Below are positions 5,345 to 59,890 of a stretch of DNA of 64,000 bases, piece after piece. This stretch comes from an uncultured Clostridia bacterium (GTDB taxonomy: Bacteria > Bacillota > Clostridia > Oscillospirales > CAG-272), in contig CANRFY010000008.1 in the NCBI GenBank assembly GCA_947630015.1, positions 5,976-69,975 on the forward strand, in the 5' to 3' direction. A program made the position numbers and the translations under genes. The notes under the pieces were generated by a model that saw nothing but the letters and a program-made list of their open reading frames with translations, did no database searches and had not been told where the DNA came from. Numbering within the stretch: the first letter of the stretch is position 1; every line of letters begins with the position of its first letter.

Positions 5345-5585
5345 TTCGGGGCGCTGCCCCGAACCCCGCTTAAGGAAACTTTTTGAAAAAAGTTTCCTTA
5401 AGAATCTTTCAAAAACTTTTATTACAGGTGTTATGGGGCGAATGTGTCAGACTCTGCGCTGCGCGTTCGTGCGATCGCGAAGTAGTCGCGCGGAGCGCGA
5501 ACACCGATGGTTTAGAGCGAATGTGTCAGACTCTGCGCTGCGCGTTCGTGCGATGACGAAGTAGTCGCGCGGGACGCGGACACCG
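5345..5585 (+). repeat. Intergenic palindromic repeat family, copy 1 (module A plus two module B)
   Basis: TTCGGGGCGCTGCCCCGAACCCCG-CTTAAG palindrome, then twice GTGTC..CTCTGC..CGAAGTAGTCGCGCG..ACACCG. Confidence 0.92.
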
Positions 5586-5622
5586 ATTTTGCGGGTTTAT
5601 GCGAGGGCGATGCAGTCAAAGC

Positions 5623-5659
5623 AAAAAATGAGCGGAAGCGTTTGCTTCCGCTCATTTTT
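5623..5659. terminator. Bidirectional terminator clpX/potD
   Basis: AAAAATGAGCGGAAGC-gttt-GCTTCCGCTCATTTTT. Confidence 0.85.
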
Positions 5660-6884
5660 AATACCAGCGCGCGCGGCGCTTTTTTACTATGACGACCGCC
5701 GCGACAGCAGCCGCGATCGATACTGCGAGCAGACCCGCGACGACATAGACGTGAGTCGGCATACCGCCCGTGATCTTCAATTCCTCCCAGAGCGAATTTA
5801 TCATCTCAAGCGTTCCCTCGTCGAGATTGCGGTACGCGTATGTGTTCAATTCCTCGGCGAAGTTGAAGCCCTCGGGATAAAGTATCTCCATCGCCTCCGG
5901 CCCCATGTCCTCGATATAGCCCTCATCCTCGAATACGAGCGAATTCGGCGACGCGTAATATATATATTCCGCGTTCGCTATCGCGATCTCGGGCGAAAGC
6001 ATGAAATTGATGAACAGCGCCGCAGTTTCGGGGTTCTGGCTCCCCTTCGGGATGCACATCGCGTCCACGAACACGTTCGTCCGCTCGGGATAATAGAAGC
6101 CGAGGTCCTCGTTGATATCGAGCATCGTGAAGTAGTCGCCGGCGTAATATGCGGCGACGGCGGCCTCGCCAGATTCCATCTTATTATATATCTCGTCCAT
6201 GACGTAGCTCTGGATGAGCGATTTCTGTTCGAGCAGTTTTTCCTGCGCCGACACCCAGTCGGCGCGTTCGGTCGAGTTGACGTCGAGTCCGAGCATATAC
6301 TGTACTGTCGCGAAGCCGTCGCGGGAATTGTTGAACTGCAATATCTTCCCCGCGTATTTTTCGTTCCACATAAGCTCCCAGCCGCCGATATCGGCCTCAT
6401 CCACCATCGTCGTGTTGTATATCACGCCGATGCGGCCGTAAGTATACGGCACCGAATAGATGTCGTCGGGATCGTAGAACAGTCCGCGGTAGTCCTCGCC
6501 GATATAGTCGTAATAGCATTCTGCGCCGTATTTTTCGCAGACGGCCTCGAGATTGATCGGAGCGAGCAGATCTTCCTTTATCATACGCTCGATCATATAA
6601 TCGGAGGGGACGATGACGTCGTAATTCGACGTGCCGCTGCTTATCTTGGCGTACATATCCTCATTTGACGGATACGTCGTATAATGGACCTTCATACGCT
6701 TCCCCGTCAGCTCTTCATAGTACGCCTCGAACTCCTTTGTGACGTTCAGCGAATCCTCGCTGCCGTCGGAGATGTACTCGCCCCAGTTATAGACGTAGAG
6801 ATGCTCCGTTTCCCCGCCCGAGCAGGAGAACATCCAGAGCGCCGCGAAGACAAGGATCAGTGCGAAAACGATGTATTTTCTCAT
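5658..6884 (-). CDS. potD: Spermidine/putrescine ABC transporter substrate-binding protein
   Basis: YNWGEYI, SNEDMYAK, PSDYMI, YSVPYTYG; lipobox-like FSC and a C-terminal TM anchor. Confidence 0.95.
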   Translation of the reverse strand: MRKYIVFALILVFAALWMFSCSGGETEHLYVYNWGEYISDGSEDSLNVTKEFEAYYEELTGKRMKVHYTTYPSNEDMYAKISSGTSNYDVIVPSDYMIERMIKEDLLAPINLEAVCEKYGAECYYDYIGEDYRGLFYDPDDIYSVPYTYGRIGVIYNTTMVDEADIGGWELMWNEKYAGKILQFNNSRDGFATVQYMLGLDVNSTERADWVSAQEKLLEQKSLIQSYVMDEIYNKMESGEAAVAAYYAGDYFTMLDINEDLGFYYPERTNVFVDAMCIPKGSQNPETAALFINFMLSPEIAIANAEYIYYASPNSLVFEDEGYIEDMGPEAMEILYPEGFNFAEELNTYAYRNLDEGTLEMINSLWEELKITGGMPTHVYVVAGLLAVSIAAAVAAVVIVKKRRARWY

Positions 6885-7747
6885 TTCGCCACGCCCCCTT
6901 CCTTGCCGCGCATGAGGAACATACGGCGTTTTTTATCGGCGCCGTCCTTCTTCTTCTTTTTCGGCTCGCCGGAGCTGTCGCTTGCGTTTGATATGACGAG
7001 CAGCAGAAGCACCGCCGCGAAGATGAGCGTCGACAGCGCGTAGATATCGGGCTTGACGCTTTTCTTTATCATCGAGTAGATGTGGATCGTCAGCGTTTCA
7101 TAGCTCGATCCGCTCGTGAAATTGCTTATGACGAAATCGTCGAACGACAGCGTGAACGCCATTATGAGTCCCGTCACGACGCCCGGCATTATGAACGGAA
7201 GCTCGACCTTGAAAAACGACTGCCACGGCGTGCATCCGAGATCAAGCGCTGCCTCAGGGATATTCTTGTCCATCTGCTTCAGCTTCGGCAGCACGGACAG
7301 TATCACATACGGCAGATTGAACGTGACGTGCGCGATCAGAAGCGTCCAGAACGAGAGATACGATTCGAGTCCGAGCAGCGTGCCGACGAAGACGAACACA
7401 AGCATGAGCGAAATACCGGTTACGATATCGGGGTTCATCATCGGTATGTTCGTCACCGACATGACGGCGCCGCGCAGAAAGCGGTTCCTCATCCTGTCGA
7501 TGCCGACGGCGGCAAGCGTGCCTATGACCGTCGATGCGATCGCGGACGAAACCGACAGCACGAGCGTGTTTTTGAGCGCCTCGAGCGTCGCAGAATCGCG
7601 GAACATCTCGCGGTACCAGCGGAGCGAAAAGCCGAGGAATTCCGTCGTCGACTCGCCCGAGTTGAACGAGATGAGTATCATCACCGCTATCGGCGAATAA
7701 AGGAAAATGAATACGAGGATGAGATAAAGTCTGGAGAGCGTTTTCAT
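6881..7747 (-). CDS. potC: Spermidine/putrescine ABC permease
   Basis: FLY.PI..., EAALDLG, FTLSFDDFVIS. Confidence 0.95.
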   Translation of the reverse strand: MKTLSRLYLILVFIFLYSPIAVMILISFNSGESTTEFLGFSLRWYREMFRDSATLEALKNTLVLSVSSAIASTVIGTLAAVGIDRMRNRFLRGAVMSVTNIPMMNPDIVTGISLMLVFVFVGTLLGLESYLSFWTLLIAHVTFNLPYVILSVLPKLKQMDKNIPEAALDLGCTPWQSFFKVELPFIMPGVVTGLIMAFTLSFDDFVISNFTSGSSYETLTIHIYSMIKKSVKPDIYALSTLIFAAVLLLLVISNASDSSGEPKKKKKDGADKKRRMFLMRGKEGGVAK

Positions 7748-8589
7748 TTGATGCGTCTGCCTCCTTCATCCTCTGCGTCGGAATAGTGGTTCATGACCGC
7801 CATCGACAGAAGTATCAGTATCATGAGGACGAGCGAGAGCGCCGCGCCGAAGTGATAGTTGATCGCGGTGCCGACGAAATAGCTCTCGATCGTATCGCCA
7901 ATGAGCTGGAATGTGCCGCCGCCGAGCTTTTGGGAAATATAGAACGTCGAGATCGACGGCACGAACACCATCGTTATGCCGGATACGACGCCCGAGAGCG
8001 ACATCGGCATGACGACGCGCGTCATGACGTGCCAGCCGCTGCATCCGAGATCGGCCGCGGCCTCGAGCAGCTTCGGATCGATGCCGGACATGACGGTGTA
8101 TATCGGCAGTATCATATACGGCAGATAGCAGAACACCATACCGACGACGACGGCGGCCGGCGTATTGATCATATGAACGGGATCGAGTCCGACGGCCTTG
8201 AACATCGAATTGATGATGCCGGTGTCCTCGAGTATCGTCATCCACGAATACGTCGTGATGAGGAAGTTCATCCACAGCGGGATCATGATGAGCAGCACCA
8301 TCACGCGCTGCCACTTTTCGCGCATACGCGAGAAAATGAACGCGAGCGGATACGCGATCACAAGGCAGATCACAGTCGAGATCAGCGCGAGGCAGAGCGA
8401 ATTGACGAAGATCAATACATAGTTCGACGTGAACAGGCGCTCGATATTTTCGGTCGTGAACGCCCCGTCAAGATCGGTGAACGAATAGTAAACGACGAAG
8501 ATAAGCGGAGCGATTATGAACAGCACGCTCCATACGATATGGGGAGCAGCGGCTGCGCGCTGCATAAAACTGCGCTTCATTTTATTCAT
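7744..8589 (-). CDS. potB: Spermidine/putrescine ABC permease (start 8589 or 8580)
   Basis: [22 protein letters not shown]. Confidence 0.93.
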
Positions 8590-9706
8590 CGACCTCCGCG
8601 TCAACCTCGGAGAGCTGTTCGAGTTCGTCTGAGAACGACGAGTAATCGCCGAACATATCCGAATATTCGGATTTCTTCATTATATGGATGGCGTCGGGTT
8701 CGATATAGGCGCCGATAACGGCGTCTGGCGCGACGTAATCCGTCGTCTGGATCATCCATTTGAAGCCGTCGATGTCGACGATGACCTCGTAATGGACGCC
8801 CTTGAACGTCACGGACGTGACCTTGCCGGTGAGCATACCCTTGTCCGCGTCGACGACGTCGACGTCCTCGGGACGCACGACGACGTCCACGGGTTCGTTT
8901 TTGTCAAAGCCGGAATCGACGCAGTCGAACGTATGACCGGCGAATTTCACGCGCTTGTCCTCGAGCATTACGCCGTCGATGATGTTCGACTCGCCGATGA
9001 AATCGGCGACGTATGCGTTGGACGGCTCGTTGTATATATCGATCGGAGTGCCGACCTGCATGATGGAACCCTCGTTCATTACGACGACGGTATCCGACAT
9101 GGAAAGCGCCTCCTCCTGATCGTGAGTGACATAGATGAACGTGATGCCGGTGCGCTTCTGCATATTCTTCAGCTCGTTCTGCATATCCTTGCGCAGCTTC
9201 AGATCGAGCGCGCCGAGCGGCTCGTCGAGCAGCAGTACGCGCGGATTATTGATGAGCGCGCGCGCGATCGCGACTCGCTGCTGCTGTCCGCCTGAAAGCG
9301 TCGCGACGCGGCGGCGTTCAAAGCCGCGCAGATTGACCATTTCGAGCATTTCCTTGACGCGGCGGGATATCTCATCCTCCGGCGTATGCGTCACGCGCAG
9401 TCCGAACGCGATATTCTCATATACGTTCAGGTGCGGGAAAAGCGCATATTTCTGAAACACCGTATTGATGTGGCGTTTATACGGCGGGGTATCGTTGATC
9501 TTTTTCCCGTCGAAATACACCTCGCCTTCATCGGGCGTTTCAAATCCGCCTATGATGCGGAGCGTCGTCGTCTTTCCGCAGCCCGACGGCCCGAGCAGCG
9601 TTATGAACTCGTCCTCGTATATGTCGAGCGAGATCCCGTCGAGTACGACGTCGCCGTCAAACGACTTCTTAATGCCGCGCAGTTCAATAATCTTCTTTCC
9701 GTTCAT
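8582..9706 (-). CDS. potA: Spermidine/putrescine ABC ATPase
   Basis: [31 protein letters not shown]-terminus. Confidence 0.97.
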
Positions 9707-12208: not shown

Positions 12209-12394
12209 CTCGGGGCGCTGCCCCGCACCCCGCTTAAGAAACTTTCCGCAAGCGGAAAGTTAGCAGATGCCTCGCATCTGCCGCCGCTAAGAATCCATTC
12301 AAAACTTTCCTGACAAGTGTTATGTGGCAAGTGTGTTTGCCTCTGCTCCGCACGTTTGTATGCTGACGAAGTAGTCGCGCGAGCGCGAACACCG
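12209..12394 (+). repeat. Repeat family copy 2 (variant A with two hairpins, plus B)
   Basis: CGGGGCGCTGCCCCGCACCCCG, AACTTTCCGCAAGCGGAAAGTT, GCAGATGC-ctc-GCATCTGC, CGAAGTAGTCGCGCGAGCGCGAACACCG. Confidence 0.9.
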
Positions 12395-12500
12395 CCTCTC
12401 GCGTCGCTGCCGCGTTATGCGGGATTGCAGTCGTTATGTAATTATCCTGCAAGCTGACGCGGGGATCGCAAATGCGACCCCCGCGTTTTTTCGGAGTTTA

Positions 12501-15197
12501 TTATTTTCCGAAGACCTTGAATTCGTATATTGTCGGCACGTACCATGACAGCGTCTCATTCGTAGTTTCTTTTCTTATGACCGATGTCACATCGAGTCTG
12601 ACGTATCTGTATTTGCCGCTTACGATCGGCGAGGTGAATCCGAACGTCTTTGTCACTCGCGTATCCGAGAGCGACGAACGATCGCATATCATCTCCCAGT
12701 TCTCGCCGTCGAGGCTTCCGTAGAGCTTATAGAGATAGTAGCCCTCGGAACCCTTGTAAATATACCACGATATCTGCACATTCGTGATATCATGCGCCTC
12801 GCCGAGATCGACCGTGAGCTTGAACGGTCTGAACTGTCCGTTCGTATTGCCGATGAACGCCGTAGTGTAATCGCCGTCGACTGCGAGCGACGCGTCGCCG
12901 TCGTCGGTGGCGGGAACGGACGATTCGATCGGCGCATCCTGCGACAGAAGATGTCCGTATGTCACGGGGATCATCTCGCCCGTTTCGGAGTTATAGAGGA
13001 TCTCGGGGAAATAATCGTAATATGCGCATCCGTGCGAGAATGTGATCGGCGCAAGCATCGTTCCGCTTATTCCTGCACCCTGCACCTGTCCCCATCTGTA
13101 TGCGTGCATTATGTAGTGCGCGTTCTCGCCCTCTCCGATCTTGAGTATCCAGCTCGACTGAGATGCGAACGTGGACGTATTTCCTATCGTGCGCAGCTCG
13201 CTCCATCCCTCCTTGAGGTTATCGGATACTGCGTATGCGCCCTGCGTCGGATACCAGCCCGCCGTCTGCGATACGAAGAAATAGTACAGCCCGTCGATCT
13301 TGACTATGTTCGGCATCTCGCGGTACATCTCGGGGAACATACGCGCCGTTACCTCTTCGATGTCTGTATAATCGTCGGTGAATTTGAACACGTATGTCGT
13401 CGCGTTTGCGCCGCTGTCGACGCCGGGCTTGTTAGCCGCCGCGAGCAGATATGCGGTCTCATCGTCGTCGATGAAGATCGACATATCGCGGACCTCGACG
13501 CCGAGCGGATTCCAAATGTTCTGGAGCTTAAATTCGCCGCCAGGTGTTCCGGTGACGAGGAACAGCTTGCCGTTCGTATAATCGATGCCGTTTTCCCAGT
13601 GAGCAGCGATTATGACAATGTTCTTAGATTTGATGTACGCGGTCTTGACGCTCTCGATGCGGCAGCTCTTCATCAGGCTGTGAGCGCTGGAGTCGACGAC
13701 GACTCTTGCGTCGCCGAACGCGTATCCGTCGTCGGACGATCTCTCAGATACGCTCGCCGCGCCGTTCGTTACATTGACGGAATAGCTGTAATACTTTTTG
13801 CCGTCGAATATATCGGCGCGCGTATGGAGGTTTGTGCCGGTCTGGTTGTTGATCGTATAGAGCTGCGTATCCGGCAGCGCGCGCGTCGTCGCCTTTACGG
13901 TGTCGCTCGATATTACGGTGCTGCCGTATTTGAGCTTGACGGTGTATTCATGCTCGCCGAGTGTGACGCCGCAGTCATGCCACGACGTTCCCTTGCCTGT
14001 ATAGACCGTTTCGCCGTCGCGCGTGATCTCATATCCGTCAGCTTCGAGCGTCGAACCCCAGTTGAGCGCCACGCAGTCGACGTCGCCGACCTTCGTTCCG
14101 CGGCGGCTGTATTCGCCCGTCGCGAACGGCAGAGCGGTGAGCGGGATCACCGCGGACGCGTCCATCGAATAGACGCGTATCTCGGCGAGGTTGCACGCGC
14201 CCGCCTTTTCAAATTCGATCTTGGTGTATGCGCCCGTAGTCAAAATATCGCCGTAGAGCTTCACCTCGGAGACGCGCGCCGTCGGCGCTTCCGTCACCTC
14301 CCAGATCAGATCGCGGGAGCCGTCCTCGCGGACGCCGTAGAATTTGCCGCCGACCGCGCTGTTGTCGCTGATGAATGCGATGCCGCCGACCGTATACGTG
14401 CCGCCGAGATCGACGGCCGCTGGAGACGTGCCGCTCGCCAAGGTCGAGGGATTGTTGTCGACGAGCGCCGCGTCGTCGGATTTAAGCTCGAGCTTCGTCA
14501 TGCCCTGATCCTCGGGGATTATGGCGAAATCCTCGTATGTTCCGTCGGCATAAAGCTCGCGGTCCGGCTCGACGATCACGTCGGTGGGAATGTTTTTCGC
14601 CGTATAAATCTCAAATTCGGCGATATTCGCGCAGTCGCGCGTGTTCTCGTATTTTATGTAGCGGAACGCGGCGACGCTCTTGAATTTCGTATAATCGACG
14701 GTGGTTTGACGCATCGGCGCCGAGCGTATCTGATAAATGAGCGTCCAGACTACGCCGTCGACGCTGCCGTAGAACGTGCCGTTAAGGCGCGATTCATATC
14801 CGGAGCGCGGCGCGAATCCTATCTTGCCTATGAGCATACGCTCGCCGAGATCGACCTTGATCCAGCCGTTCTCGACGCCGTCGAAGAACGTGGACACGTT
14901 GCCGTCGAACGCCTTTGCCGCCACGTCGGAGCCGTTGTTGTACGGCGTGGACGAGGTGATCATGTCCTCGGTCACATCGATCTTTGTGTATTCGACGTCG
15001 CCGTCAGGTTCGGGATACGACATCTGTTCGGGCTTTTTGCCCTCCGGCCACGCCGGAGCTTCATCGAGTATGTTCGGATCGTCAGCCGATGTGCCGCCGT
15101 CCGTTTCGGATGCGCCGCCGCGCGGTCCGCACGCGAACAGCGACGCTGCCGTCGCCACGGTAAGAAGCGCGGCGACAATACGATAAAACGCTTTCAT
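12501..15197 (-). CDS. Lipoprotein with a GH43-like (exo-beta-1,3-galactanase-like) domain and F5/8-type C (CBM32-like) domains
   Basis: LFAC lipobox; AFDG....FFD..WI.VDLG discoidin motifs; RDMSIF.DDD, REMP, GWYP, SQ beta-propeller motifs; GGAGGG RBS. Confidence 0.75.
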   Translation of the reverse strand: MKAFYRIVAALLTVATAASLFACGPRGGASETDGGTSADDPNILDEAPAWPEGKKPEQMSYPEPDGDVEYTKIDVTEDMITSSTPYNNGSDVAAKAFDGNVSTFFDGVENGWIKVDLGERMLIGKIGFAPRSGYESRLNGTFYGSVDGVVWTLIYQIRSAPMRQTTVDYTKFKSVAAFRYIKYENTRDCANIAEFEIYTAKNIPTDVIVEPDRELYADGTYEDFAIIPEDQGMTKLELKSDDAALVDNNPSTLASGTSPAAVDLGGTYTVGGIAFISDNSAVGGKFYGVREDGSRDLIWEVTEAPTARVSEVKLYGDILTTGAYTKIEFEKAGACNLAEIRVYSMDASAVIPLTALPFATGEYSRRGTKVGDVDCVALNWGSTLEADGYEITRDGETVYTGKGTSWHDCGVTLGEHEYTVKLKYGSTVISSDTVKATTRALPDTQLYTINNQTGTNLHTRADIFDGKKYYSYSVNVTNGAASVSERSSDDGYAFGDARVVVDSSAHSLMKSCRIESVKTAYIKSKNIVIIAAHWENGIDYTNGKLFLVTGTPGGEFKLQNIWNPLGVEVRDMSIFIDDDETAYLLAAANKPGVDSGANATTYVFKFTDDYTDIEEVTARMFPEMYREMPNIVKIDGLYYFFVSQTAGWYPTQGAYAVSDNLKEGWSELRTIGNTSTFASQSSWILKIGEGENAHYIMHAYRWGQVQGAGISGTMLAPITFSHGCAYYDYFPEILYNSETGEMIPVTYGHLLSQDAPIESSVPATDDGDASLAVDGDYTTAFIGNTNGQFRPFKLTVDLGEAHDITNVQISWYIYKGSEGYYLYKLYGSLDGENWEMICDRSSLSDTRVTKTFGFTSPIVSGKYRYVRLDVTSVIRKETTNETLSWYVPTIYEFKVFGK

Positions 15198-15306
15198 ATT
15201 CCCTCCGAAAATGTGTATTTTTTTATGAACATCTACCATAAATATATCATCGCGGCCGCGATTTGTCAAGCATAATATTGACGCGCAGAGGCTCTATATA
15301 AAGCGT

Positions 15307-15338
15307 AAAACGTCCCCGAGGCAAAGCCTCGGGGACGT
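15307..15338 (-). terminator. Intrinsic terminator for the minus-strand MATE transcript
   Basis: ACGTCCCCGAGGC-ttt-GCCTCGGGGACGT followed by TTT on the minus strand. Confidence 0.75.
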
Positions 15339-15506
15339 CACAATGTCAAAGGGATAGGCATAATCGCCGATCGTTATTCACCGTGCAGATCGTCTAAAGC
15401 CCGTTTGCGTTCATCCGGCGTAAGGCGCAGCTTCGGGTACGGAAGAGTTTTGTAGTTCAAGGGCTTGTGTTTTCCGTTTTTCACGATAAACGCGGCGCGG
15501 CGCCGT

Positions 15507-16892
15507 TTATTCGATCGCGGCGCTGAGATACCGCTTCTCCCACGGCGCGAATTTATAGTAAAGAAGCATCAAAAGCGAGCAGACCGCCCATCCCGTCGGA
15601 TACGCGAATGTGATCACCATCTCCGACATCGGGAAAATGCGCGTCAGCACGAATAAATACAGCTGGCGGAACGCGACGAACGAGCCGAGCATTATCAGCA
15701 TCGGCGCGCGCGATTCGCCTGCTCCGCGAAGCACGCCGGCGAGTATCTGATTTATGATGCAGAGTATGTAGAACGGCGATATCCAGCGCAGGAAATGCAC
15801 GCCGTAATAGCGGTACATATCGGTTCCCTGCTTGCTCAGAAAATACACAAGTCCGTCGGCGAAGATGATGATCGGGATGACGAGGACGACGGTCAGCACA
15901 ACCGACAGCACGATCCCCGTCATAGCGCCGCGCCGTGAACGCTCCGGCTGTCCCGCGCCGTAATTCTGCGCCACAAACGTAGTGACCGCAAGCGATATCG
16001 ACTGCATCGGCAGCATCGCGAACGCGTCGATCTTGTTGTACGACGTCCATCCCGCCATGCAGTCCTCGCCGAACGCGTTTATGTACGACTGAACGAACAC
16101 GTTCGAGAACGCCGTGATCGCAAGCTGGATCGCGGTCGGTATTCCTATCCTTACTATGCGCGTCAATATGGCGCGGTCGATTCTGAGCTTGCGCCATTCG
16201 ATCCTGTACGCCGATTTCACGACCGTAAGCGCGATCAGGATGAAGATCGCCGACATCGCCTCCGCGATGACGGTAGCGAGCGCGACTCCGTCCGCGCCCA
16301 TGTGGCACACAAGCACGAAGATCAGATCGAGCGCTATATTCGTCAGCGCCGAGATTATGAGCGCGACGAGCGGCAGCACCGAGTTGCCGATCGCGCGCAG
16401 GATGCCGGAGCCGATATTGTAAAGCATCAGTCCCGACAGCCCGAGGAAGTAGATATAAAGATAGATTTCGGCGTCGTGTACGACTGAATCCGGCGTATCC
16501 ATGAGCGAAACCATGAACGGCACCGTCACCGTGCATATCGCCGTGAATACTACGCAGAGAATGAGCGATACCGAGATCGTCGTCGCAACGGTGTCGGAGA
16601 GGCGCTTGTCGTCCTTCGCGCCGGAATAATGGCCGATAACGACGCCCGCGCCCGTCGCAAATCCGGAGAAAAATCCGATCGCGGTATTCAGTATCGGGCC
16701 GACGCTTCCGACGGCGGCGTATGCAGACTGCCCCACATAGTTTCCCACGACCCATGAGTCGACGGTGTTGTAAAGCTGCTGGAACAGGTTGCCTATCAGC
16801 ATCGGGATCGCGAACATTATGAGCAGGGACGTTATGTTCCCCTTTGTCATATCCATGTCGGAGCTGTGCCGGCGATGCGATTCTTTAACCAT
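15507..16892 (-). CDS. MATE family efflux transporter (start uncertain)
   Basis: DMTKG..., FAIP..GNLFQQLYNTVD, LRA.G.S..P, QN.GAG motifs. Confidence 0.93.
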   Translation of the reverse strand: MVKESHRRHSSDMDMTKGNITSLLIMFAIPMLIGNLFQQLYNTVDSWVVGNYVGQSAYAAVGSVGPILNTAIGFFSGFATGAGVVIGHYSGAKDDKRLSDTVATTISVSLILCVVFTAICTVTVPFMVSLMDTPDSVVHDAEIYLYIYFLGLSGLMLYNIGSGILRAIGNSVLPLVALIISALTNIALDLIFVLVCHMGADGVALATVIAEAMSAIFILIALTVVKSAYRIEWRKLRIDRAILTRIVRIGIPTAIQLAITAFSNVFVQSYINAFGEDCMAGWTSYNKIDAFAMLPMQSISLAVTTFVAQNYGAGQPERSRRGAMTGIVLSVVLTVVLVIPIIIFADGLVYFLSKQGTDMYRYYGVHFLRWISPFYILCIINQILAGVLRGAGESRAPMLIMLGSFVAFRQLYLFVLTRIFPMSEMVITFAYPTGWAVCSLLMLLYYKFAPWEKRYLSAAIE

Positions 16893-17070
16893 TTGCTTAT
16901 ATATCACGTACCTTTCGGCGCGTCCGGAGGACGCTCTTTGAGCAGGAACAAGTATAGCACAATCCGACATAAAATGCAATAAGATACGTGTGCGCGGGAG
17001 AATTTATGTTTTGACAAATTCGCGTCGGACTATTGCAATTTTTCCGTTATTGTGCTATAACTATCGCAAT

Positions 17071-18591: not shown

Positions 18592-18715
18592 TAACGAGCA
18601 GCACAACGGCTGACACACTCGCCAAATAACTATTGTAAGGAAAGTTTTGAAGGGATTCTTAAGGGGAACTTTTTCAAAAGTTCCCCTTAAGCGGGGTTTG
18701 GGGCAGCGCCCCAAA
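18592..18715 (-). repeat. Repeat family copy 3 (reverse orientation; A plus degenerate start of B)
   Basis: Reverse complement TTTGGGGCGCTGCCCCAAACCCCG-CTTAAGGGGAACTTTT-ga-AAAAGTTCCCCTTAAG-AATCCCTTCAAAACTTTCC. Confidence 0.9.
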
Positions 18716-18732: not shown

Positions 18733-18762
18733 AAAAACGGGGACGAGAGGTCCCCGTTTTTT
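18733..18762. terminator. Bidirectional terminator
   Basis: AAAAACGGGGAC-gagag-GTCCCCGTTTTT. Confidence 0.85.
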
Positions 18763-21928: not shown

Positions 21929-21932
21929 TATA

Positions 21933-22190
21933 TTCGGGGCGCTGCCCCGCACCCCGCTTAAGGAACTTCTTATAAGAAGTTCCTTAAGAATCTTCAAGAA
22001 TTTTTATTACAGGGGTTATGGGGAAAGTGTGTTTGCCACTGCGCTGCGCGTTCGTGCGTGAACGAAGTAGTCGCGCAAGCGCGAACACCGCCTCGCGGGG
22101 CTTCGCCCCGCACCCTGACTTAAGGAACTTCTTATAAGAAGTTCCTTAAGAATCTTCAAGAATTTTTATTACAGGACAAGTGTGTCAGGC
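21933..22190 (+). repeat. Repeat family copy 4 (A-B-A)
   Basis: Two perfect CTTAAGGAACTTCTTATAAGAAGTTCCTTAAG palindromes separated by module B. Confidence 0.92.
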
Positions 22191-22352
22191 TTTGTCAACA
22201 GTCACGGGCGCGGTCTTTACGGCCGCGCCTTTTTCGCGCGTTTTGCGGATATTGCCGACATGATATAAAATATTAGTCTTGACTTTGACCCGATTATACA
22301 ATATAATCTAATATGTGACATACGTCAGAATAAAGACGAAAGGCGGCTCCGC

Positions 22353-24690: not shown

Positions 24691-24913
24691 TCTGGGCGCT
24701 GCCTCTCGGGGCGCTGCCCCGAACCCCGCTAAGGGAAACTTTTGTAGAAAGTCGAACTTTCCGCAAGCGGAAAGTTAGCAGATGCTTCGCATCTGCCCCC
24801 GCTAAGAATCCATTCAAAACTTTCCTGACAAGAAGAGGTATAGGGCAAGTGTGTTCATCTCTGCATCGCGCGTTTGTGCAAGGGCGAAGCAGCCGTGCGG
24901 GGTGCGAACACCG
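24691..24913 (+). repeat. Repeat family copy 5 (chimeric A plus B)
   Basis: Partial duplicate GGGCGCTGCC, a broken CTAAGGGAAACTTTT arm, the two hairpins seen in copy 2, then module B (GCAG variant). Confidence 0.9.
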
Positions 24914-24936
24914 ATGGCTGTAAATTTTCTGCAATC

Positions 24937-24971
24937 AAAAACGGGAACGGCAAAGCCGTTCCCGTTTTTTT
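24937..24971. terminator. Bidirectional terminator
   Basis: AAAAACGGGAACGGC-aaa-GCCGTTCCCGTTTTT. Confidence 0.85.
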
Positions 24972-37946: not shown

Positions 37947-38277
37947 TTTCGGGGCGCTGCCCCGCACCCCGCTTAAGGGAAACTTTCCGCAAGCGGAAAG
38001 TTTCCCTTAAGAATCCCCGCAAAACTTTCCCTACAAAGGTTATAGGGCAAGTGTGTTCAACTCTGCGATGCACGTTCGTGCAAGGGCGAAGTAGTCGCGC
38101 GAGCGCGAACACCGATTTTCGGGGCGCTACCCCGAACCCTGACTTAAGGAACTTCTTATAAGAAGTTCCTTAAGAATCTTCAAGAATTTTTATTACAGGG
38201 ATTATAGGGCAAGTGTGTTCGACTCTGCGATGCACGTTTGTGCAAGGGCGAAGCAGCCGCGCGGGGTGCGAACATCG
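37947..38277 (+). repeat. Repeat family copy 6 (A-B-A-B, 170-bp period, non-identical units)
   Basis: Units start at about 37947 and 38117 with different central palindromes. Confidence 0.92.
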
Positions 38278-38286
38278 AATTATAAC

Positions 38287-38317
38287 AAAAAAGCCTCGGC
38301 TGCGCCGAGGCTTTTTT
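38287..38317. terminator. Bidirectional terminator
   Basis: AAAAAAGCCTCGGC-tgc-GCCGAGGCTTTTTT. Confidence 0.85.
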
Positions 38318-40664: not shown

Positions 40665-41756
40665 ATGAAAAAATCAATAAAATTTGCGGCGCTTGCGCTT
40701 GCGATCGCGATCGCGGCGGCTGCCGCCGTTTCATGCGGCGTTAAAAACGACGGCAAAGGCAGCGACACTGATACGGACGCCGGCGTTTATGCGACGGCGG
40801 ACGGCACGGATACGGCTGCGCCCGACACGGATGCGCCCGATACCGACGCGCCCGACACGGACGCGCCTGATACAGACGCGCCCGATACGGATGCGCCCGA
40901 TACGGATGCGCCCGTCACAGATGCGCCCGTCACAGACGCCGACACCGAACCAGAAGGCGCCGATCCAGTCATGGGCGATCACGAGGCGCAGCCTCTGCGC
41001 TATGTCGCCCTCGGCGACTCGATCGCATACGGTCAGGGACTCGCCGACCCCGAGGGCGAACGCTATTCCGCGCTCGTCGAGGCCGCGCTCGACGCGTCCG
41101 GCATCTACGACTGCGAATCGTTCAATTACGGCATAAACGGGCTTCAGAGCGGCGGTCTCATCGACGACATCGCGGACAATTTCGCGCCGGAGCTTAACGG
41201 AGCCGACGTCGTTACTGTCAGCATCGGCGCGAACAACGTGCTGTCGCCGTCCGTATCGATGCTGACGCAGTATGCGATCAATCTTCTCGTCGGCGACGAG
41301 ACGCGGCGCGGCGAGCTTAATTCGGAGCTTTATAAAAATTTCCGCGCCGACACGGACGCGGGTATCGCGGAATTCGAGCGCGATCTGCCGAATCTGATCG
41401 CGCTGATACGCGTCGCCGCGCCCGACGCGCGCATCATTTTCCAGACTATATACAATCCGTATGCGGGAGTGTCGCTGACGCTCGATTTCTCCGTTGAGCA
41501 AATCGCCATGGCGACGCTGTCCGACGAGCTTGTGACGCGCCTCGACGATATCATCAAAGATAACGCCGATAAGCTCGGATACGAGGTCGTCGACATCTAC
41601 GCCGCGTTTTCCGGCGAGGACGGCGTCGTGAACGCCGGCTCCGGCATCGGCTCGTCGCCGTTTTCAAATCTCGATCCGCATCCGACGGCGAAGGGACACC
41701 GCATAATCGCCGACGCGATAACGGATATGCTGCTGCCGAAGGAGGCCGACGTATGA
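40665..41756 (+). CDS. SGNH/GDSL hydrolase lipoprotein
   Basis: VSC lipobox, ALGDS, IGANN, DPHP. Confidence 0.88.
   Translation: MKKSIKFAALALAIAIAAAAAVSCGVKNDGKGSDTDTDAGVYATADGTDTAAPDTDAPDTDAPDTDAPDTDAPDTDAPDTDAPVTDAPVTDADTEPEGADPVMGDHEAQPLRYVALGDSIAYGQGLADPEGERYSALVEAALDASGIYDCESFNYGINGLQSGGLIDDIADNFAPELNGADVVTVSIGANNVLSPSVSMLTQYAINLLVGDETRRGELNSELYKNFRADTDAGIAEFERDLPNLIALIRVAAPDARIIFQTIYNPYAGVSLTLDFSVEQIAMATLSDELVTRLDDIIKDNADKLGYEVVDIYAAFSGEDGVVNAGSGIGSSPFSNLDPHPTAKGHRIIADAITDMLLPKEADV
40818..40937 (+). repeat. Eight 15-bp coding tandem repeats (APDTD x6, APVTD x2)
   Basis: GCGCC(C/T)G.(C/T)AC.GA(C/T) units. Confidence 0.95.
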
Positions 41757-51339: not shown

Positions 51340-51410
51340 GCGGGTGTATTTCAATGGCAGAAAACCGGCTTCCCAAGCCGAGAACGCGGGTTCGATTCCC
51401 GTCACCCGCT
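51340..51410 (+). tRNA. tRNA-Gly(CCC), CCA not encoded
   Basis: GCGGGTG/CACCCGC acceptor stem, TTCCCAA anticodon loop, GGTTCGATTCC T-arm; TTGACA/TATACT promoter just upstream. Confidence 0.93.
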
Positions 51411-51463
51411 GCATACAACGCAAGCCCGATTTCGGGCTTGCGTTATATTTCGCAATATCATAT

Positions 51464-51536
51464 CGGGGTGTGGCCCAGTTGGTAGGGCACCTGGTTTGGG
51501 ACCAGGACGCCGCGAGTTCGAGTCTCGCCACTCCGA
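51464..51536 (+). tRNA. tRNA-Pro(TGG), CCA not encoded
   Basis: CGGGGTG/CACTCCG acceptor stem, CCTGG-TTTGGGA-CCAGG anticodon arm, GTTCGAG T-loop. Confidence 0.93.
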
Positions 51537-55304: not shown

Positions 55305-55982
55305 TTATATCTCGATCGATTCGCCGCATTTCGTAAGAGTCGCGATCCTGTCCCTGTATGGCGCCGCCTGATCGGAGGCGGTAAAATCGGCGGCATATTC
55401 GCCGCGTCCCCAGAAATGCATCGGGAACGCCTTTTTTATATCGAGCGTCCGCATCGCATAATCGAAGCCGAGGGTTCCGTTCTCCCCCTGCCTCGGGTCG
55501 AGCGGCAGAAACGCGGCGTCGATCGCGACGCCGGACAAAAGCGAAAGCTCCGACTCGAACAGCCGTCTCATTTGCGCGTTCGCGCAGCTCGGCGCGCCGT
55601 CCCAGATCCAGAGATGAAGATCGCCCGCATGATAGATCGTTTTCCCGTCGACGTTTAAAAGATACGCGACGCCGCAGTCAGTCGAGCGAAGCGTCCTTAC
55701 GGCGACGCCGGCGATCTCGGCTGTTTCGTGCGGCCCCATCGATTTTGCGTTCACGCCATCGGGCGCGTCTATCTCGGACGACAGCACATAGTATGCGCCG
55801 CCGCGTCCGGCGTCGAAGATGTCGGGATTATAGTGATCCTCGTGAATGTGGCTGACGAAGAACACCGTCTTTTTGTCCGCGTCGGCGGGGCGCGGAAGCT
55901 CGCCGCGATAATAATCGAATATGAGTATATGGCGCTCCGTTTCGACGGCGAATCCGCTGTGATCTATATACGTTACCTTCAT
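55305..55982 (-). CDS. MBL-fold metallo-hydrolase
   Basis: HSGF, SH.H.DH, YHAGD, PMHFW. Confidence 0.9.
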   Translation of the reverse strand: MKVTYIDHSGFAVETERHILIFDYYRGELPRPADADKKTVFFVSHIHEDHYNPDIFDAGRGGAYYVLSSEIDAPDGVNAKSMGPHETAEIAGVAVRTLRSTDCGVAYLLNVDGKTIYHAGDLHLWIWDGAPSCANAQMRRLFESELSLLSGVAIDAAFLPLDPRQGENGTLGFDYAMRTLDIKKAFPMHFWGRGEYAADFTASDQAAPYRDRIATLTKCGESIEI

Positions 55983-56007
55983 AATTTACCTATCCCCCGC
56001 TGCCCCT

Positions 56008-56511
56008 TTATATTTCACGCGAGCCGAGATTTATAACGCGCAGGCCGGAAGCCTTCGCGTATCGCACCGTGTACGCGGTGCCGCCCGAGTTCGTGTTCAG
56101 ATACGCGACGCATATGCCGCATCCGTCGACAAGCTCGCGGTCGCGCAAAAGCAGGCTTTCGCGCGAATATTCGACGGCGGCGTAGACGACCTCGTCCGCG
56201 CTGGCGATTATGCGTTCGTACAGCTCGCGGTCGGCAGCGCTCCATTTTTTCGCCTGATCGCGGCTCGGCAGAACGAGTACGAGCCTGATGTCACGACATT
56301 CCGAATGCTTGCGGCGCAAAACGCACAGCGCCGAGAGCGTATCGAAGCCGAGCGCGCCTCCGCATCTGAAATTGCGGACGCCCTCGCGGTACAGCCGATC
56401 TATTATCTCATCGACGCTGACGGTAAGCGCTGCCGTCGCCTCCGCGCCGATCTTTCTGTGACCCGTAAAGCAGCACGTTTTATACGGATCGGTCGCACTG
56501 CATATGTTCAT
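56008..56511 (-). CDS. SLOG family (YspA/DUF1273-like) protein
   Basis: CCFTGHR, GGALGFD, RD..LVD, GGT.YTV.YA. Confidence 0.88.
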   Translation of the reverse strand: MNICSATDPYKTCCFTGHRKIGAEATAALTVSVDEIIDRLYREGVRNFRCGGALGFDTLSALCVLRRKHSECRDIRLVLVLPSRDQAKKWSAADRELYERIIASADEVVYAAVEYSRESLLLRDRELVDGCGICVAYLNTNSGGTAYTVRYAKASGLRVINLGSREI

Positions 56512-57374
56512 ACGGTACGGTAAAGTCCGCGCAAAAGCGCGATCTCGCGCTTGTATCCGTCAAGATCGTTCGGCGTTTCAAGGCAGAACGGAAGCCCGCG
56601 CAGGCGCGGAGAATTTATTATGCGCGCGATACCGTCGAGTCCGAGCGCGCCGCCGCCGATCACCTCATGGCGATCCTTGTGCGCGCCGAGTTGATTTTTG
56701 CTGTCGTTCAAATGGATCGCGCACAGTCTGTCAAGTCCGATCACGCGGTCGAATTCGTCCATCACCGCCTCCGGATCGCCGGCAATATCGTATCCGGCGT
56801 CGCTGACGTGGCACGTATCGAGGCATACGCCGAGCTTTCCCGCGATCGCGGGATTTTCGCGTTCGGCCGCGTCTATTATGGCGCGCACCTCTTCAAACGT
56901 CGAGCCGATCTCGCTGCCCTTTCCCGACATCGTCTCGATCAAAACGCGCGTTTTCTGCTCCGGCTTCACTACCGTCGCAAGGCAGCGCGCCGTCAGCTCA
57001 ATGCCGGCCTCGATCCCCTGCCCCGTATGCGTCCCGGGATGGAAATTGTAAAGCGTCCCGGGAAAATATTCGAGCCGTTCTATATCCTCCGCCATCGAGC
57101 GGATCGCAAATTCGCGCACGTTTTCCTTTGCCGAGCATGGATTGACCGTATACGCGGCGTGCGCGATCATATCCGAGAAGCGAAGCCCATGCTCGTCCGC
57201 GAACGCGATCGCACTATTTATATCGTCAAGATCGAGCGCGCGCGAGTCGCCGCCGCGCGGATTACGCGTGAAATACTGGAGCGTATTGCCGTCGATCGCG
57301 ACGGCGTCGCGCAGCATGGCGGTATATCCTCCGGATACCGACATATGCGCGCCGATTTTCATTCTTTCCTGCAT
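56508..57374 (-). CDS. nfo: Endonuclease IV
   Basis: IGAH.S, HPG.H, ETMSGKG.E.G, DTCH, HLNDS, DRH, LETP. Confidence 0.96.
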   Translation of the reverse strand: MQERMKIGAHMSVSGGYTAMLRDAVAIDGNTLQYFTRNPRGGDSRALDLDDINSAIAFADEHGLRFSDMIAHAAYTVNPCSAKENVREFAIRSMAEDIERLEYFPGTLYNFHPGTHTGQGIEAGIELTARCLATVVKPEQKTRVLIETMSGKGSEIGSTFEEVRAIIDAAERENPAIAGKLGVCLDTCHVSDAGYDIAGDPEAVMDEFDRVIGLDRLCAIHLNDSKNQLGAHKDRHEVIGGGALGLDGIARIINSPRLRGLPFCLETPNDLDGYKREIALLRGLYRTV

Positions 57375-57501
57375 CGCTCAAATGCGGGCGCGTCGCTCGC
57401 GCCCCTGCCGCCTTTCCTCCGACTGACGCCGCAATTGCGGCTACGATCCAATTATAGGATAAAATTCCCCGAATGTCAACAAGAAATGAACCCCCGCATC
57501 G

Positions 57502-59340
57502 TTATGCGTCAGCCTCGATCTCTGCCCGCGCGTATATGACGACGCCGCCACCGCCGCCTGCGCGGACATAGCCGTGATCCGTCAAAAACCGTACAAAGCC
57601 GTCGACGCCGCCGTATTTTTGCAGCTCCTTTTCAGCCTTTTCCTCAAACGCAACATAATCGGACTGCAACAAATGCTCGGTCGAGCAGTATTGTATGTCG
57701 TAAAGCGTCTGTCTTTTCGAGAGATAAACTGTCAGAAACGTCGTCGAGGACGCGGACGCGCCGTCAGGAATTTCGCAAAGCGCCGCGCGGCGCTCGTCGT
57801 AGTATTCCATGTATACGCACTCGCGCGAGATGTATTTGATCCCCTCCGGCAGAACAGTATTTGAAAACGCCAAAACAGACAGCGCGAGCATCGCCGCCGC
57901 GATCATGCGCCGCGTCGTCGCTCGCAGTTCGGCGGCGTTCACGATGCAGAGATATATTATAAGCGCCGTCGAGCCGGACGTGTACTGATATAATACGTTG
58001 TACTGATACGCGTAATCTGTCACTAAATTCAACAGCGCGTATGGGATCAAAAGCGCAAATCGCTCGTATCGGCGCGTCAGAAACGGAAGTCCCGCCGCCG
58101 GCAGCATCGTCGCGGCGATAAATCCGAGCTTGTCAGCCTCTGCGCATTCGGACAATATCCTCATCGGATACAGAAGCGCCGCGGCGACGATATTTATTAT
58201 CGGCGAGCGGCCGCCTCCGGCGAAGTTTGAATAATGATAGATCAATATCCCGTCGCCGCAGTTTTCGAGAAAATTTACGGCGAGGACGAAATATACGACC
58301 GACAGCGCGGCGACGGCCGCGCCGGTCGCGACGCCGCGCCGGCGCGCGGCATTGTCGGGCGCGTTGAAATACGCGCTCATCGCCGCATATGCCCCGACTG
58401 CAAACGTGTAGACGGCCGCGTCCTCCTTGACCGCAAGCGTCAGGACGAACGACGCCGCCGTTATGACCGCGTTTTTCCGATCGAGGCCGTACAAAAGCCA
58501 GAGAAGCAGCGGCAGCAGGAATATATTTTCATGCACGTCATAGCCGAGCGCGCCGAAAAACGTCGGCGTCAGCATCGCCGACGATGTGATCAAAAGCGCG
58601 CCGACGTCCCCGATCCCGTGCGCGCGGCACAGCTTCCATATCGGGAACGCCGCCGACGCCGCGACGGCGGCTCCGAGCGCCGCCATCGTCTCCGCGTGCG
58701 GGAATATCGCGTAAAACGGCAGCATCGCGTACCAGATCGGCGACAGATGCACGCGCATATGCGAGAGCGCGCCGTCGCGTTCGAGCGTCGTCATAGGCGT
58801 GCCGGTCGCGCGCATTGATTCCATCATCTGCGAAAATATGCCCATATCAAACGCGGGGGATGAAAACGACCGTATGCGCGCGATCCCCCACCATGCCGCG
58901 AACGCAAGCAGCAGCACGCCGATCGCGGCGGCGGCCGCGATCGGCGCTGTCTGCGCCGTCACAGACTTTTGCGCGCGCGAATCAGTCTCGCAGTTGTCGG
59001 CGGCGCGTCCCTTTTGCGCGTACACGATCAAGACGATCAATACGGCCGCCGACGCCGAAAGCGTATACCACGAAAACGATCCGATCAAAAACGACGCCGA
59101 CAATAGCGCGAATAATATCGGTATCGACGCCCGCTCCGCGCGCGGGAGCTTTATCGGCGCCGCCGACAGCACCGCGAACGACGCGGCGAATACGGCCGCG
59201 GCGACGACGGGATCAGCTCCGAGCGATCCCGCAATCTCACCGCTACCGAACGCGGAAACTGTCAGCGCCGCGCACAGATACGATATCACGGCGCGCCTTA
59301 TCGCGCCGCCGCGAGCATCTCTCACCTTCATGCTTTTCAT
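57502..59340 (-). CDS. DUF2079 (GT-C-like) membrane protein
   Basis: FDMGIF.Q, SH..VH.SP, YD.HEN, VKEDA, YQY motifs. Confidence 0.8.
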   Translation of the reverse strand: MKSMKVRDARGGAIRRAVISYLCAALTVSAFGSGEIAGSLGADPVVAAAVFAASFAVLSAAPIKLPRAERASIPILFALLSASFLIGSFSWYTLSASAAVLIVLIVYAQKGRAADNCETDSRAQKSVTAQTAPIAAAAAIGVLLLAFAAWWGIARIRSFSSPAFDMGIFSQMMESMRATGTPMTTLERDGALSHMRVHLSPIWYAMLPFYAIFPHAETMAALGAAVAASAAFPIWKLCRAHGIGDVGALLITSSAMLTPTFFGALGYDVHENIFLLPLLLWLLYGLDRKNAVITAASFVLTLAVKEDAAVYTFAVGAYAAMSAYFNAPDNAARRRGVATGAAVAALSVVYFVLAVNFLENCGDGILIYHYSNFAGGGRSPIINIVAAALLYPMRILSECAEADKLGFIAATMLPAAGLPFLTRRYERFALLIPYALLNLVTDYAYQYNVLYQYTSGSTALIIYLCIVNAAELRATTRRMIAAAMLALSVLAFSNTVLPEGIKYISRECVYMEYYDERRAALCEIPDGASASSTTFLTVYLSKRQTLYDIQYCSTEHLLQSDYVAFEEKAEKELQKYGGVDGFVRFLTDHGYVRAGGGGGVVIYARAEIEADA

Positions 59341-59890
59341 AACAATACCCCCGTATGATGCAGTCATACAGGGGTCAGTCCGCCGAACAGTATTGAGATC
59401 GCACAACTTTCGGGGCGCTGCCCCGCACCCCGCTTAGAGGGACTTTTGTAAAAGTCCCTCTAAGAACTCCTCAAAACTTTCCTTACATGGGTTATGGGGC
59501 AAGTGTGTTCGACTCTGCATCGCGCGTTCGTGCGATAACGAAGTAGTCGCGCGAGGCGCGAACACCGCCTTTTCGGGGCGCTGCCCCGCACCCCGCTTAG
59601 AGGGACTTTTGTAAAAGTCCCTCTAAGAACTCCTCAAAACTTTCCTTACATGGGTTATGGGGCAAGTGTGTTCGACTCTGCATCGCGCGTTCGTGCGATA
59701 ACGAAGTAGTCGCGCGAGGCGCGAACACCGCCTTTTCGGGGCGCTGCCCCGAACCCCGCTTGCAGATGCTTCGCATCTGCCGTCTTAATAATCTTCAGGA
59801 ATTTTTATTAAAACGGTTATGGGGCAAGTGCGGTGCGCATATTTTCGGCAGGCTGACTCCCGTATGATCTAATCATACAGGGGCATCATT
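59341..59890 (+). repeat. Repeat family copy 7: two identical 163-bp A-B units plus a partial third, flanked by 47-bp inverted repeats
   Basis: Units start at 59408, 59571, 59734; flanks 59341-59387 and 59844-59890 match at 35/47 as reverse complements. Confidence 0.9.

Follow-up and report, generated by a model that had tools for sequence, protein, structure and literature searches.

The DNA analyzed here (the window, 64,000 nucleotides) comes from an uncultured Clostridia species of the rabbit gut and corresponds to positions 5976-69975 of contig C8, such that a window coordinate is the contig coordinate minus 5975. At seven places between its genes, the window carries arrays of a noncoding, hairpin-forming repeat that is built from two modules, here called A and B. 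The genes that flank these arrays are ordinary chromosomal ones: clpX, spo0A, and genes for a solute-binding protein, a GH43 enzyme, an SDR protein, an M23 peptidase, a VTC-domain protein, permeases, and a histidine kinase. The arrays probably represent a lineage-expanded family of noncoding, nonautonomous mosaic hairpin repeats that belong to the same broad category as repetitive extragenic palindromic (REP) sequences and bacterial interspersed mosaic elements (BIMEs), BOX elements, and palindromic miniature inverted-repeat transposable elements (MITEs). Comparisons among genomes indicate that the family is mobile over evolutionary time, because one of its sites (behind spo0A) is empty in congeners, its taxonomic spread is patchy, and the two hairpins of module A (H1 and H2) recur together in unrelated Clostridia and in five other phyla.

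A modular repeat family in the window and across the genome

All seven loci had been described in an earlier note on this DNA, and their presence is confirmed here. Six were recovered by repeat finding (starts at 5345, 12209, 21932, 24704, 37947, and 59408), and the reversed copy, at 18617-18715, was found by sequence inspection and with nhmmer. The nhmmer profiles were built from eight window units and later divided into an A part and a B part. A search of the window with these profiles yields seven loci with 11 A modules, which is the number given before, and 9 B modules. The shuffled arrangements reported previously (A-B-B, A-B-A, and A-B-A-B) are all present among the profile-derived architectures. 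Likewise, the window appears to lack a transposase, as had been claimed: none of the 56 window proteins scanned (14 + 42) contains a transposase domain. The locus density is high, given that approximately 2.6 loci would be expected in a window of this size from the genome average.

The order of parts within a unit is also as first described, with a GGGGC-gct-GCCCC hairpin, a CTTAAG-bounded palindrome, a TTATGGGGCAAGTG linker, and then module B. Module A begins with a short AT-rich and C-poor leader that ends in ...ATATTC or ...GGTTTTT. This is followed by H1, a GC hairpin of 7-8 bp with the form NNGGGGC-NNN-GCCCCN'N', and by a C-tract that reads (R)(M)ACCCCGC or ACCCTGAC. H2 is a near-perfect hairpin, usually of 14-15 bp, that is bounded by CTTAAG or CTTAG...CTAAG and whose sequence varies while its pairing is kept; the linker after it reads AAGAATC...TTATTACAGGGGTTATGGGGCAAGTG. 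Differences between the hairpins of individual copies, which had been noted for the window, extend to the whole genome, where 109 A modules carry 44 distinct H2 sequences. Module B, of approximately 66-75 nt, can be represented by two or three small hairpins enclosed in an outer stem (GTGTTCG...CGAACAC).

The apexes of H2 house further small hairpins, as seen at window positions 12240-12290 and 24730-24800 and in an insert of ~85 nt in an unrelated genome. We had suspected an IS110-like insert in the H2 of loci L040, L061, and L111. This candidate was rejected, as the insert in L040 (also numbered L225) is nested, hairpin-rich, noncoding DNA of ~85 nt with no insertion sequence (IS).

Pairing within module A was evaluated with an alignment of 63 distinct A cores, of which 7 come from the window and 56 from other genomes. 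In H1 and H2, 95.7% of the cells pair, compared to at most 65.6% when partner columns are slid. Double changes at these pairs occupy 222 cells versus 67 +/- 6 in shuffled alignments, and none of 500 shuffles reached the observed value. Covariation is found for 11 of the 16 pairs in H2 and for 2 of the 7 pairs in H1, namely the two outer ones. The pairing of H1 and H2 is strongly supported, and that of module B is poorly supported. A consensus fold for module B was tried and set aside, since RNAalifold gives just -5 kcal/mol and manually drawn helices show little covariation.

The assembly that holds the window is a 2.39-Mb draft in 69 contigs with 55.8% G+C and 98% completeness. A profile scan of this whole genome agrees with the earlier prediction of a high-copy, nonautonomous family: 97 noncoding loci were found on 37 contigs, with 132 A and 120 B modules that make up ~1% of the draft and with E-values that reach 2e-50. 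This is far beyond chance expectation, as the 21-nt pattern that represents the H1 core occurs 54+33 times versus 1+1 times for a reversed-pattern control. The arrays follow the grammar (A B0-5)n in direct tandem, with A always preceding B. Orientation is uniform within 95 of the 97 loci and mixed at just two. Several contigs terminate within a module, the 3' ends of arrays are ragged (B is cut at ~30-41 or at 53-55), and partial H1 duplicates lie beside arrays.

The loci of the window and the features next to them are listed in Table 1. At locus 7, the units at 59408-59570 and 59571-59733 (163 nt each) are 100% identical. These identical units and the ragged 3' ends suggest that arrays, once established, may grow and shrink locally through tandem duplication and deletion. 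Locus 7 is also flanked by an inverted repeat whose hairpin, CCCGTATGA...TCATACAGGGG, occurs in the genome only as these left and right copies, and the array looks as if it had been inserted in the loop of a long hairpin.

Table 1. Repeat loci of the window, features beside them, and two other features (window coordinates)
Feature	Position	Strand	Description
Locus 1	5345..5588	+	Array A-B-B; begins 10 nt past the stop codon of clpX (5334)
Downstream of locus 1	~5623-5660		Bidirectional terminator, then 3' end of the minus-strand solute-binding-protein gene
Locus 2	12209..12397	+	A-B; compound H2 with two extra small hairpins nested at ~12240-12290; antisense to both minus-strand neighbors, GH43/F5_F8 (stop 12501) and GFO/IDH/MocA oxidoreductase (start 12095)
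Downstream of locus 2	~12459-12491	+	Terminator-like hairpin
Locus 3	18617..18715	-	Lone A module, reversed; follows the stop of the SDR gene (18590)
Beside locus 3	~18733-18762		Terminator, ahead of the M23 peptidase gene 3' end
Locus 4	21933..22175	+	A-B-A, final A truncated; starts 4 nt behind the spo0A stop codon (21928)
Downstream of locus 4	~22205-22234		Terminator, then promoter of the next gene
Locus 5	24691..24915	+	Partial H1 duplicate (24691-24704), then A-B (24705-24915); compound H2 with nested hairpins at ~24730-24800; behind the DUF4097 gene stop (24681)
Downstream of locus 5	~24936-24971		Terminator
Locus 6	37947..38280	+	A-B-A-B; begins 10 nt past the stop codon of an ABC permease gene (37936)
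Downstream of locus 6	~38287-38317		Bidirectional terminator
Locus 7	59408..59829	+	A-B-A-B-A; antisense to both minus-strand neighbors, a DUF2079 gene and a histidine kinase gene
Inverted repeat, left of locus 7	59350..59387		Hairpin plus 13-nt arm, inverted relative to the right copy
Inverted repeat, right of locus 7	59845..59884		Hairpin plus 13-nt arm
Tandem repeat	40785-40954		15-nt unit, at least 8 copies, in frame in the GDSL-lipase-like gene 40665-41756, encoding (P-D-T-D-A)n
Two tRNA genes	51340-51536		Rfam tRNA, 63.7 and 66.8 bits; between a DinB-like gene and the gene for a large sigma-70-domain protein

The gene context of the family was examined with flanks validated by Pfam in the window and with a simple gene caller of our own across the genome. 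Four of the window loci lie between convergent genes, one is tandem-sense, two are tandem-antisense, and none is between divergent genes. The claim that no copy lies between divergent genes therefore stands for the window, but not for the genome, where 4 of 85 loci have this placement. These 85 are the uniformly oriented loci that begin with a full A module; the others among them are convergent (35), tandem-sense (23), tandem-antisense (16), or at contig edges (7). The upstream gene is co-oriented with the array at 64 loci, with a median gap of ~12 nt between stop codon and module, and is on the opposite strand at 21. Of 91 loci, 62 are followed by a sense terminator (hairpin and T-run) within 160 nt, versus 548 of 1,809 element-free gene ends; among co-oriented loci, the count is 45 of 61.

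The usual order is thus stop codon, array, and terminator, which implies that most arrays should be transcribed as part of a 3' untranslated region (3' UTR). The family probably sits in the 3' UTRs of dozens of housekeeping genes, including clpX, spo0A, and transporter genes. Sense copies would be cotranscribed with these genes and may affect the stability or termination of mRNA 3' ends, as REP and BOX elements do.

A second claim regarding placement, that nearly all copies share one orientation, is similarly local. Six of the seven window loci are on the plus strand, whereas 80 A modules are on the plus strand and 52 on the minus strand of the contigs genome-wide. The earlier note had suggested that orientation be compared with the replichores, and no bias was observed: the loci divide 50 versus 41 relative to replication direction estimated by GC skew and 51 versus 40 by gene-strand bias, two proxies that correlate with r = 0.82.

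Empty sites, age, and distribution of the A core

Past movement of the family, which had been proposed from the window, is supported at the end of the spo0A gene. All five congeners examined (G002, G005, G006, G009, and G016) are empty at this site and run from the same stop codon directly into a terminator, where the genome studied here has an intervening 243-nt A-B-A array. This is the one site with aligned flanks. Furthermore, none of 20 orthologous flanks from relatives contains a match to the A or B profile. A diverged cousin of the element is present behind the orthologous solute-binding-protein gene in two relatives (L021, at G009:C16:9280-9980, and L023, at G016:C77:9700-10400). It consists of an H2-like hairpin and the A linker without H1, is co-oriented with the solute-binding-protein gene and opposite in orientation to the window array, and was missed by both profiles.

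The age of the expansion can be bracketed from the divergence between copies and from occupancy among strains. The median likeness between copies from different loci is 92-93%. Population data were taken from Logan contigs of four rabbit-gut or gut metagenome runs from four studies, in which contigs are short and break inside repeats. In these data, which reveal presence only, loci 2, 4, and 5 are occupied and none is empty. The divergence between loci, together with this strain-wide occupancy, indicates that the expansion is younger than the split from the sampled congeners and older than the sampled strains. The expansion in this genome is not recent. Apparent joints between loci in the Logan contigs proved to be cross-matches among repeats and not deletions. 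In one run (X7, record 28), 82 nt of the window (18603-18684) are replaced by 12 other letters, which leaves a much shorter A remnant at locus 3.

Module A extends well beyond this lineage. A stricter, exact H1 pattern of 25 nt was searched in one genome per GTDB species and found in at least 98 stretches. Among the matches listed are records from Clostridia and other Bacillota (Oscillospiraceae, Acutalibacter caecimuris, Christensenellaceae, Lachnospiraceae, Bulleidia, and Ruminococcus) and from other phyla (a Chlamydiia metagenome-assembled genome [MAG], Elstera litoralis, a Bradymonadales MAG, Desulfovibrio caledoniensis, and a Lentisphaerae MAG). All 80 loci that were fetched match module A from position ~3, mostly to ~80 and some for a shorter distance, and none of the 80 matches module B. 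Near-identical cores of 21-25 nt occur in many copies in different phyla.

Copy numbers of the 21-nt core differ greatly among genomes. The genome studied here has 87 copies (2 for the control), and five unrelated Clostridia have 27-120 (control 0-13). Outside Bacillota, the counts are 38 in the Bradymonadales MAG (control 14), 9 in E. litoralis, 7 in the Chlamydiia MAG, and 2 each in D. caledoniensis and the Lentisphaerae MAG (control 0 in these four). In a sample from the same order, 32 of 301 genomes carry the pattern and ~9 have at least eight copies, and it was found in none of 17 other genomes of the same family. The taxonomic spread is therefore patchy. The exact 25-nt core has no match in 2.9 million viral contigs, and a 79-nt A core has none in plasmid or phage collections, where the low-complexity filter of BLAST may hide short palindromes.

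In other lineages, module A is joined to other partners. The MAG with 120 core copies (G066) carries a palindromic, MITE- or REPIN-like element of ~270 nt with sharp ends, arranged as AAGACCTT, A, linker, central hairpin, inverted linker, inverted A, and AAGGTCTT. The window array at 21932 and locus L079 in this same MAG share an identical 53-nt stretch (the tail of H1, H2, and the beginning of the linker). The direct tandem arrays of Acutalibacter and others alternate A with another partner module that is specific to the lineage. At G068:C33:1288-1376, G070:C34:13-126, and G347:C183:2832-2914, head-to-tail copies of the H1 core alone recur every ~30-34 nt, which implies that H1 can multiply without H2. 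Placement in other genomes resembles that described above, as 35 of 79 H1 sites have a co-oriented frame of at least 70 codons that ends no more than 30 nt upstream.

These findings bear on the possibility that no dedicated enzyme is involved, and that the repeats spread when hairpin-forming terminator regions undergo template switching in replication, gene conversion, and illegitimate recombination, with ordinary recombination carrying them between genomes. Such a process would account for the ragged 3' ends and adjoining partial H1 duplicates, for the small hairpins nested in H2 apexes, and for neighboring units that can be identical. It is also compatible with the lack of any transposase tied to the family and with a comparison of a 20-kb query to 18 congeners, in which most repeat loci coincide with a break in synteny to G009 and G016. 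However, near-identical, multicopy cores of 21-25 nt in different phyla and a defined palindrome of ~270 nt with sharp ends are both difficult to obtain without a sequence-specific activity, and we regard an enzyme-free origin as very unlikely. Regarding gene order in the same region, the GH43-type and MatE genes (window 12501-16979) are in tandem here and in opposite orientation in five relatives (G009:C56, G016:C7, G015:C10, G006:C7, and G002:C10).

Candidate mobilizers, insertion sequences, and host roles

The earlier note had proposed that the family is mobilized as single-stranded DNA (ssDNA). Under this hypothesis, the modules are REP- or REPIN-like (REPINs being inverted REP doublets) or are IS200/IS605-derived palindromes, which are excised and inserted by a HUH (Y1) transposase, either TnpA or a REP-associated tyrosine transposase (RAYT). 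IS200/IS605 elements insert strand specifically, in a manner linked to replication direction. The orientation counts given above (50:41 and 51:40) show no such link. Moreover, the units form direct tandem arrays and not inverted doublets, with just 2 of 97 loci mixed.

A search for a RAYT or TnpA gene flanked by modules, which the earlier note had also suggested, gave one Y1_Tnp match in the assembly, with no A or B modules around it. This match is an 81-residue C-terminal fragment of an IS200-type TnpA (profile positions 62-121). It lies on a small contig of mobile-element debris (L001, at G000:C50:5897-8650), where it is cut by an rve-type IS with a 323-residue transposase on the other strand, beside a broken MobA-like relaxase gene. 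Among ten other carriers of the core, five have no Y1_Tnp match at E<=1e-3 (G041, which is an isolate assembly, G045, G067, G068, and G069), G066 has a match of just 20.9 bits, one has a fragment, and three have clear matches. Genome-wide counts of the core pattern in G066 and the carriers without a match span 27-120 (27-101 or more for those without a match), and G041 and G045, which were outside this count, have several H1 copies each among the fetched loci.

Some observations do favor a Y1 enzyme. The modules are GC-rich, extragenic, high-copy hairpins with a conserved tail that looks single stranded, inverted doublets without an obvious target duplication occur in one MAG in a REPIN-like manner, and the genome contains the Y1_Tnp fragment. 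In addition, RAYTs of group 1 have been reported from Clostridia (PMC5581495), and genome bins can lose multicopy genes. Nevertheless, with a truncated and unlinked TnpA, carriers with no Y1_Tnp match, and no replichore bias, the proposed ssDNA mobilization is unsupported, and we consider it quite unlikely.

Other candidate sources of a mobilizer were also evaluated. The assembly has no IS110 match above the cutoff, no TnpB, and a single rve gene (on contig C50), although bins lose multicopy genes, so that absence from draft assemblies is not proof. Ten genes enclosed by two arrays were scanned as a possible transposase source and rejected, as each of them is a housekeeping gene or part of a toxin-antitoxin system (PFK, AI-2E transporter, FAD synthetase, radical SAM, SpoVAC/AD, and ParE/RelB). 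The ParE/RelB pair is enclosed by two arrays at G000:C19:11848-13295. In G066, where many contigs begin at the center of the palindrome, a parent element was sought as inward-facing core pairs 1-3 kb apart, and the 100 listed sites (of 120) include none. At present, the family has no transposase linked to it.

A different mobile element does meet the modules. Twenty-two contig ends stop in either of two related end sequences (13 + 9), which belong to an IS with at least 11 copies. Examples are C8:1-88 (just outside the window), C3:143240-143325, C21:1-66, C15:1-78, and C18:1-80. Each IS end is preceded by YTTTTT and 2-3 nt; 8 of the 22 ends fall within the H2 apex of an A module, and another 4 fall within H2-like GGAAACTTTTT arms. 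The terminal repeats are imperfect, and both contain GAAGTGCAAC. The interior of this IS is absent from the bin. An exact 25-nt motif of its end has no metagenome match, and a degenerate motif found relatives. One metagenome relative carries both end types as its left and right ends, ~1.07 kb apart, and encodes a 326-residue transposase with HTH_38 (1.8e-17) and rve (1.9e-8) domains. This protein and element length place the relative, and with it the IS that interrupts the hairpins, in the IS30 family. A search of 60 relatives, several of them carriers of the repeats, did not find this IS, and contig C30 has only a solo IS end relic.

Given its at least 11 copies and the 8 of 22 ends in H2 apexes, this IS might be thought to mobilize the modules in trans. 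We consider this extremely improbable. Its terminal repeats bear no resemblance to A or B ends, it lies inside H2 instead of flanking modules, and it was not found in the 60 relatives, which include carriers of the family. The pattern is in line with an IS for which the hairpin is a place to land, a behavior described for other IS families and REPs (PMC1525189).

We return to a lineage-expanded family of nonautonomous repeats, in which new loci would arise through insertion in trans by an enzyme that is encoded outside the window and unrecognized in the assembly. Hairpin apexes and the spacer between stop codon and terminator would be tolerated or preferred targets. A broader and rather speculative version, which we consider unlikely, is that the H1-H2 pair is the recognition core of an undescribed class of broad-host-range mobile elements that lands behind stop codons or in hairpin apexes, gains lineage-specific partners, and is moved by something outside the known REP-associated Y1 transposases. 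The mover could then be either a host-encoded activity that many phyla share or a transposase family that is new. Such a class would explain the 21-25-nt cores shared across phyla, their absence from the viral, phage, and plasmid sets, and the lack of a linked transposase.

Several points, including the uniform occupancy among strains described above, weigh against the interpretation that we prefer. Neither excision nor insertion could be demonstrated, and the same is true of target duplications and of the precise ends of the element. The nearest species (G009 and G016) are at ~86% identity, and their intergenic flanks cannot be aligned, which makes ends and target duplications unreadable. No pair of loci is more than 95% identical over at least 120 nt, so current activity is not demonstrated. 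Multicopy IS interiors are missing from the 69-contig bin, and a mobilizing gene could likewise be unassembled. The genome-wide gene context comes from a crude gene caller, with the Pfam check covering 24 flanking genes. Transcription as 3' UTR is inferred from position alone, and no RNA run contained the organism. Lastly, the stems of module B are conserved in sequence with few compensatory changes, and their G.T and A.C mismatches are balanced (49 versus 41, 31 versus 24, and 11 versus 17). A whole unit folds better than shuffles on both strands (z = -5.2 and -5.0). This equal folding of the two strands and the balanced mismatches mean that nothing favors selection at the RNA level or a functional strand.

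The same observations are relevant to the possibility that the repeats are selected as structured 3' UTR elements that serve the host, for example as mRNA stabilizers, termination helpers, or protein-binding sites, with mobility being secondary. Their tight placement between stop codon and terminator (sense in 64 of 85 loci), the similar placement in other lineages, the strong compensatory conservation of H1 and H2, and the occupancy of the examined sites in strains of four studies are all in line with such a role. Likewise, REPs are described as influencing gene expression and as bound by several host proteins (PMC1525189). However, 21 of the 85 loci face the wrong way, 16 are antisense in tandem gene pairs, and neither an excess of G.U over A.C nor a strand difference in folding is seen. 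Congeners lack the element at the same gene end, the spread across the order is patchy with copy numbers from 0 to ~120, and none of the RNA runs included this organism. Selection for a host function as the primary explanation thus appears improbable to us.

Comparison with known repeat families

Our results indicate a new family of the REP/BIME/BOX/MITE-like type. A match in Rfam had been named in advance as evidence against novelty, and there is none: at gathering scores, the whole window gives only the two tRNAs, region 59380-59900 gives only weak microRNA and snoRNA noise at E<=10, and six related loci with odd H2 inserts give only microRNA noise. No description of this repeat family was found in the literature searched. 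Novelty is judged from Rfam and this literature, with ISfinder outside the comparison.

Short hairpin repeats scattered through the genome have received much study in Proteobacteria and pneumococci, and hardly any in the uncultured gut Clostridia that predominate in the microbiomes of animals. In this case, the family makes up ~1% of a small genome, breaks assemblies, coincides with synteny breakpoints, and attracts an IS. It is notable that further modules and an IS30-family element both nest in the hairpin apexes. A core that crosses phyla without a linked transposase and lies consistently behind stop codons offers a handle on how repeats spread without RAYTs and on their effects at mRNA 3' ends. 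The A and B profiles would also aid repeat masking and MAG scaffolding in these lineages.

Among known systems, the BOX elements of Streptococcus pneumoniae provide a close architectural parallel. They consist of boxA, a variable number of boxB, and boxC, and we know of no transposase for them. Both BOX and the family described here are noncoding, modular, intergenic, and hairpin forming, and in both an inner module is repeated a variable number of times in direct order. Unlike BOX, the present family has no closing C module, its whole A-B unit repeats as well, it is placed tightly behind stop codons, and its core is found in multiple phyla. The likeness described here is one of modular logic.

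The family also resembles MITEs in being short, noncoding, multicopy, and structured, and the G066 element has long inverted ends and a length of ~270 nt. The differences are that no parent IS whose ends match was found in G066 (with 100 of its 120 sites listed) and that the window genome has only one end type, in tandem. Inverted ends are seen only in other genomes, and target duplications are unreadable because the flanks of the nearest species do not align. In contrast to IS200/IS605-derived elements, orientation is unlinked to replication direction. The likeness to REPINs is that the same core forms inverted doublets in another MAG. Within the genome studied here, arrays are direct at 95 of 97 loci with no inverted doublet unit, and no cognate single-copy RAYT flanked by repeats was found in these draft bins. 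REPIN-RAYT systems are described as being passed on mostly by vertical descent (10.1101/2022.05.22.493013), whereas the core examined here is patchy and crosses phyla.

The IS that enters the hairpins has a relative with the features expected for IS30 (a transposase of ~320-340 residues with an N-terminal HTH and rve, an element of ~1-1.2 kb, and imperfect terminal repeats). IS1397, ISKpn1, IS621, and ISPpu9 insert in REPs, much as this IS does in the H2 apex (PMC1525189 and PMC12288879). In PMC1525189, the IS known to land in REPs belong to five families (IS3, IS110, IS4, IS256, and IS5), and the IS30 family is outside these five.

The comparison with the REPs and BIMEs of Proteobacteria brings these features together. 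BIMEs have alternating orientation and defined linker motifs, whereas the arrays here are direct and follow the grammar (A B0-5)n. Nevertheless, the modules are short, GC-rich, imperfect extragenic palindromes, with 132 A modules at 97 loci and pairing that is evident from covariation. According to PMC1525189, PMC2817692, and PMC3116915, REPs and BIMEs are likewise high-copy, GC-rich extragenic hairpins that form clustered mosaics, mostly at the 3' ends of genes. Furthermore, both REPs (PMC1525189) and the family described here are landing sites for IS.

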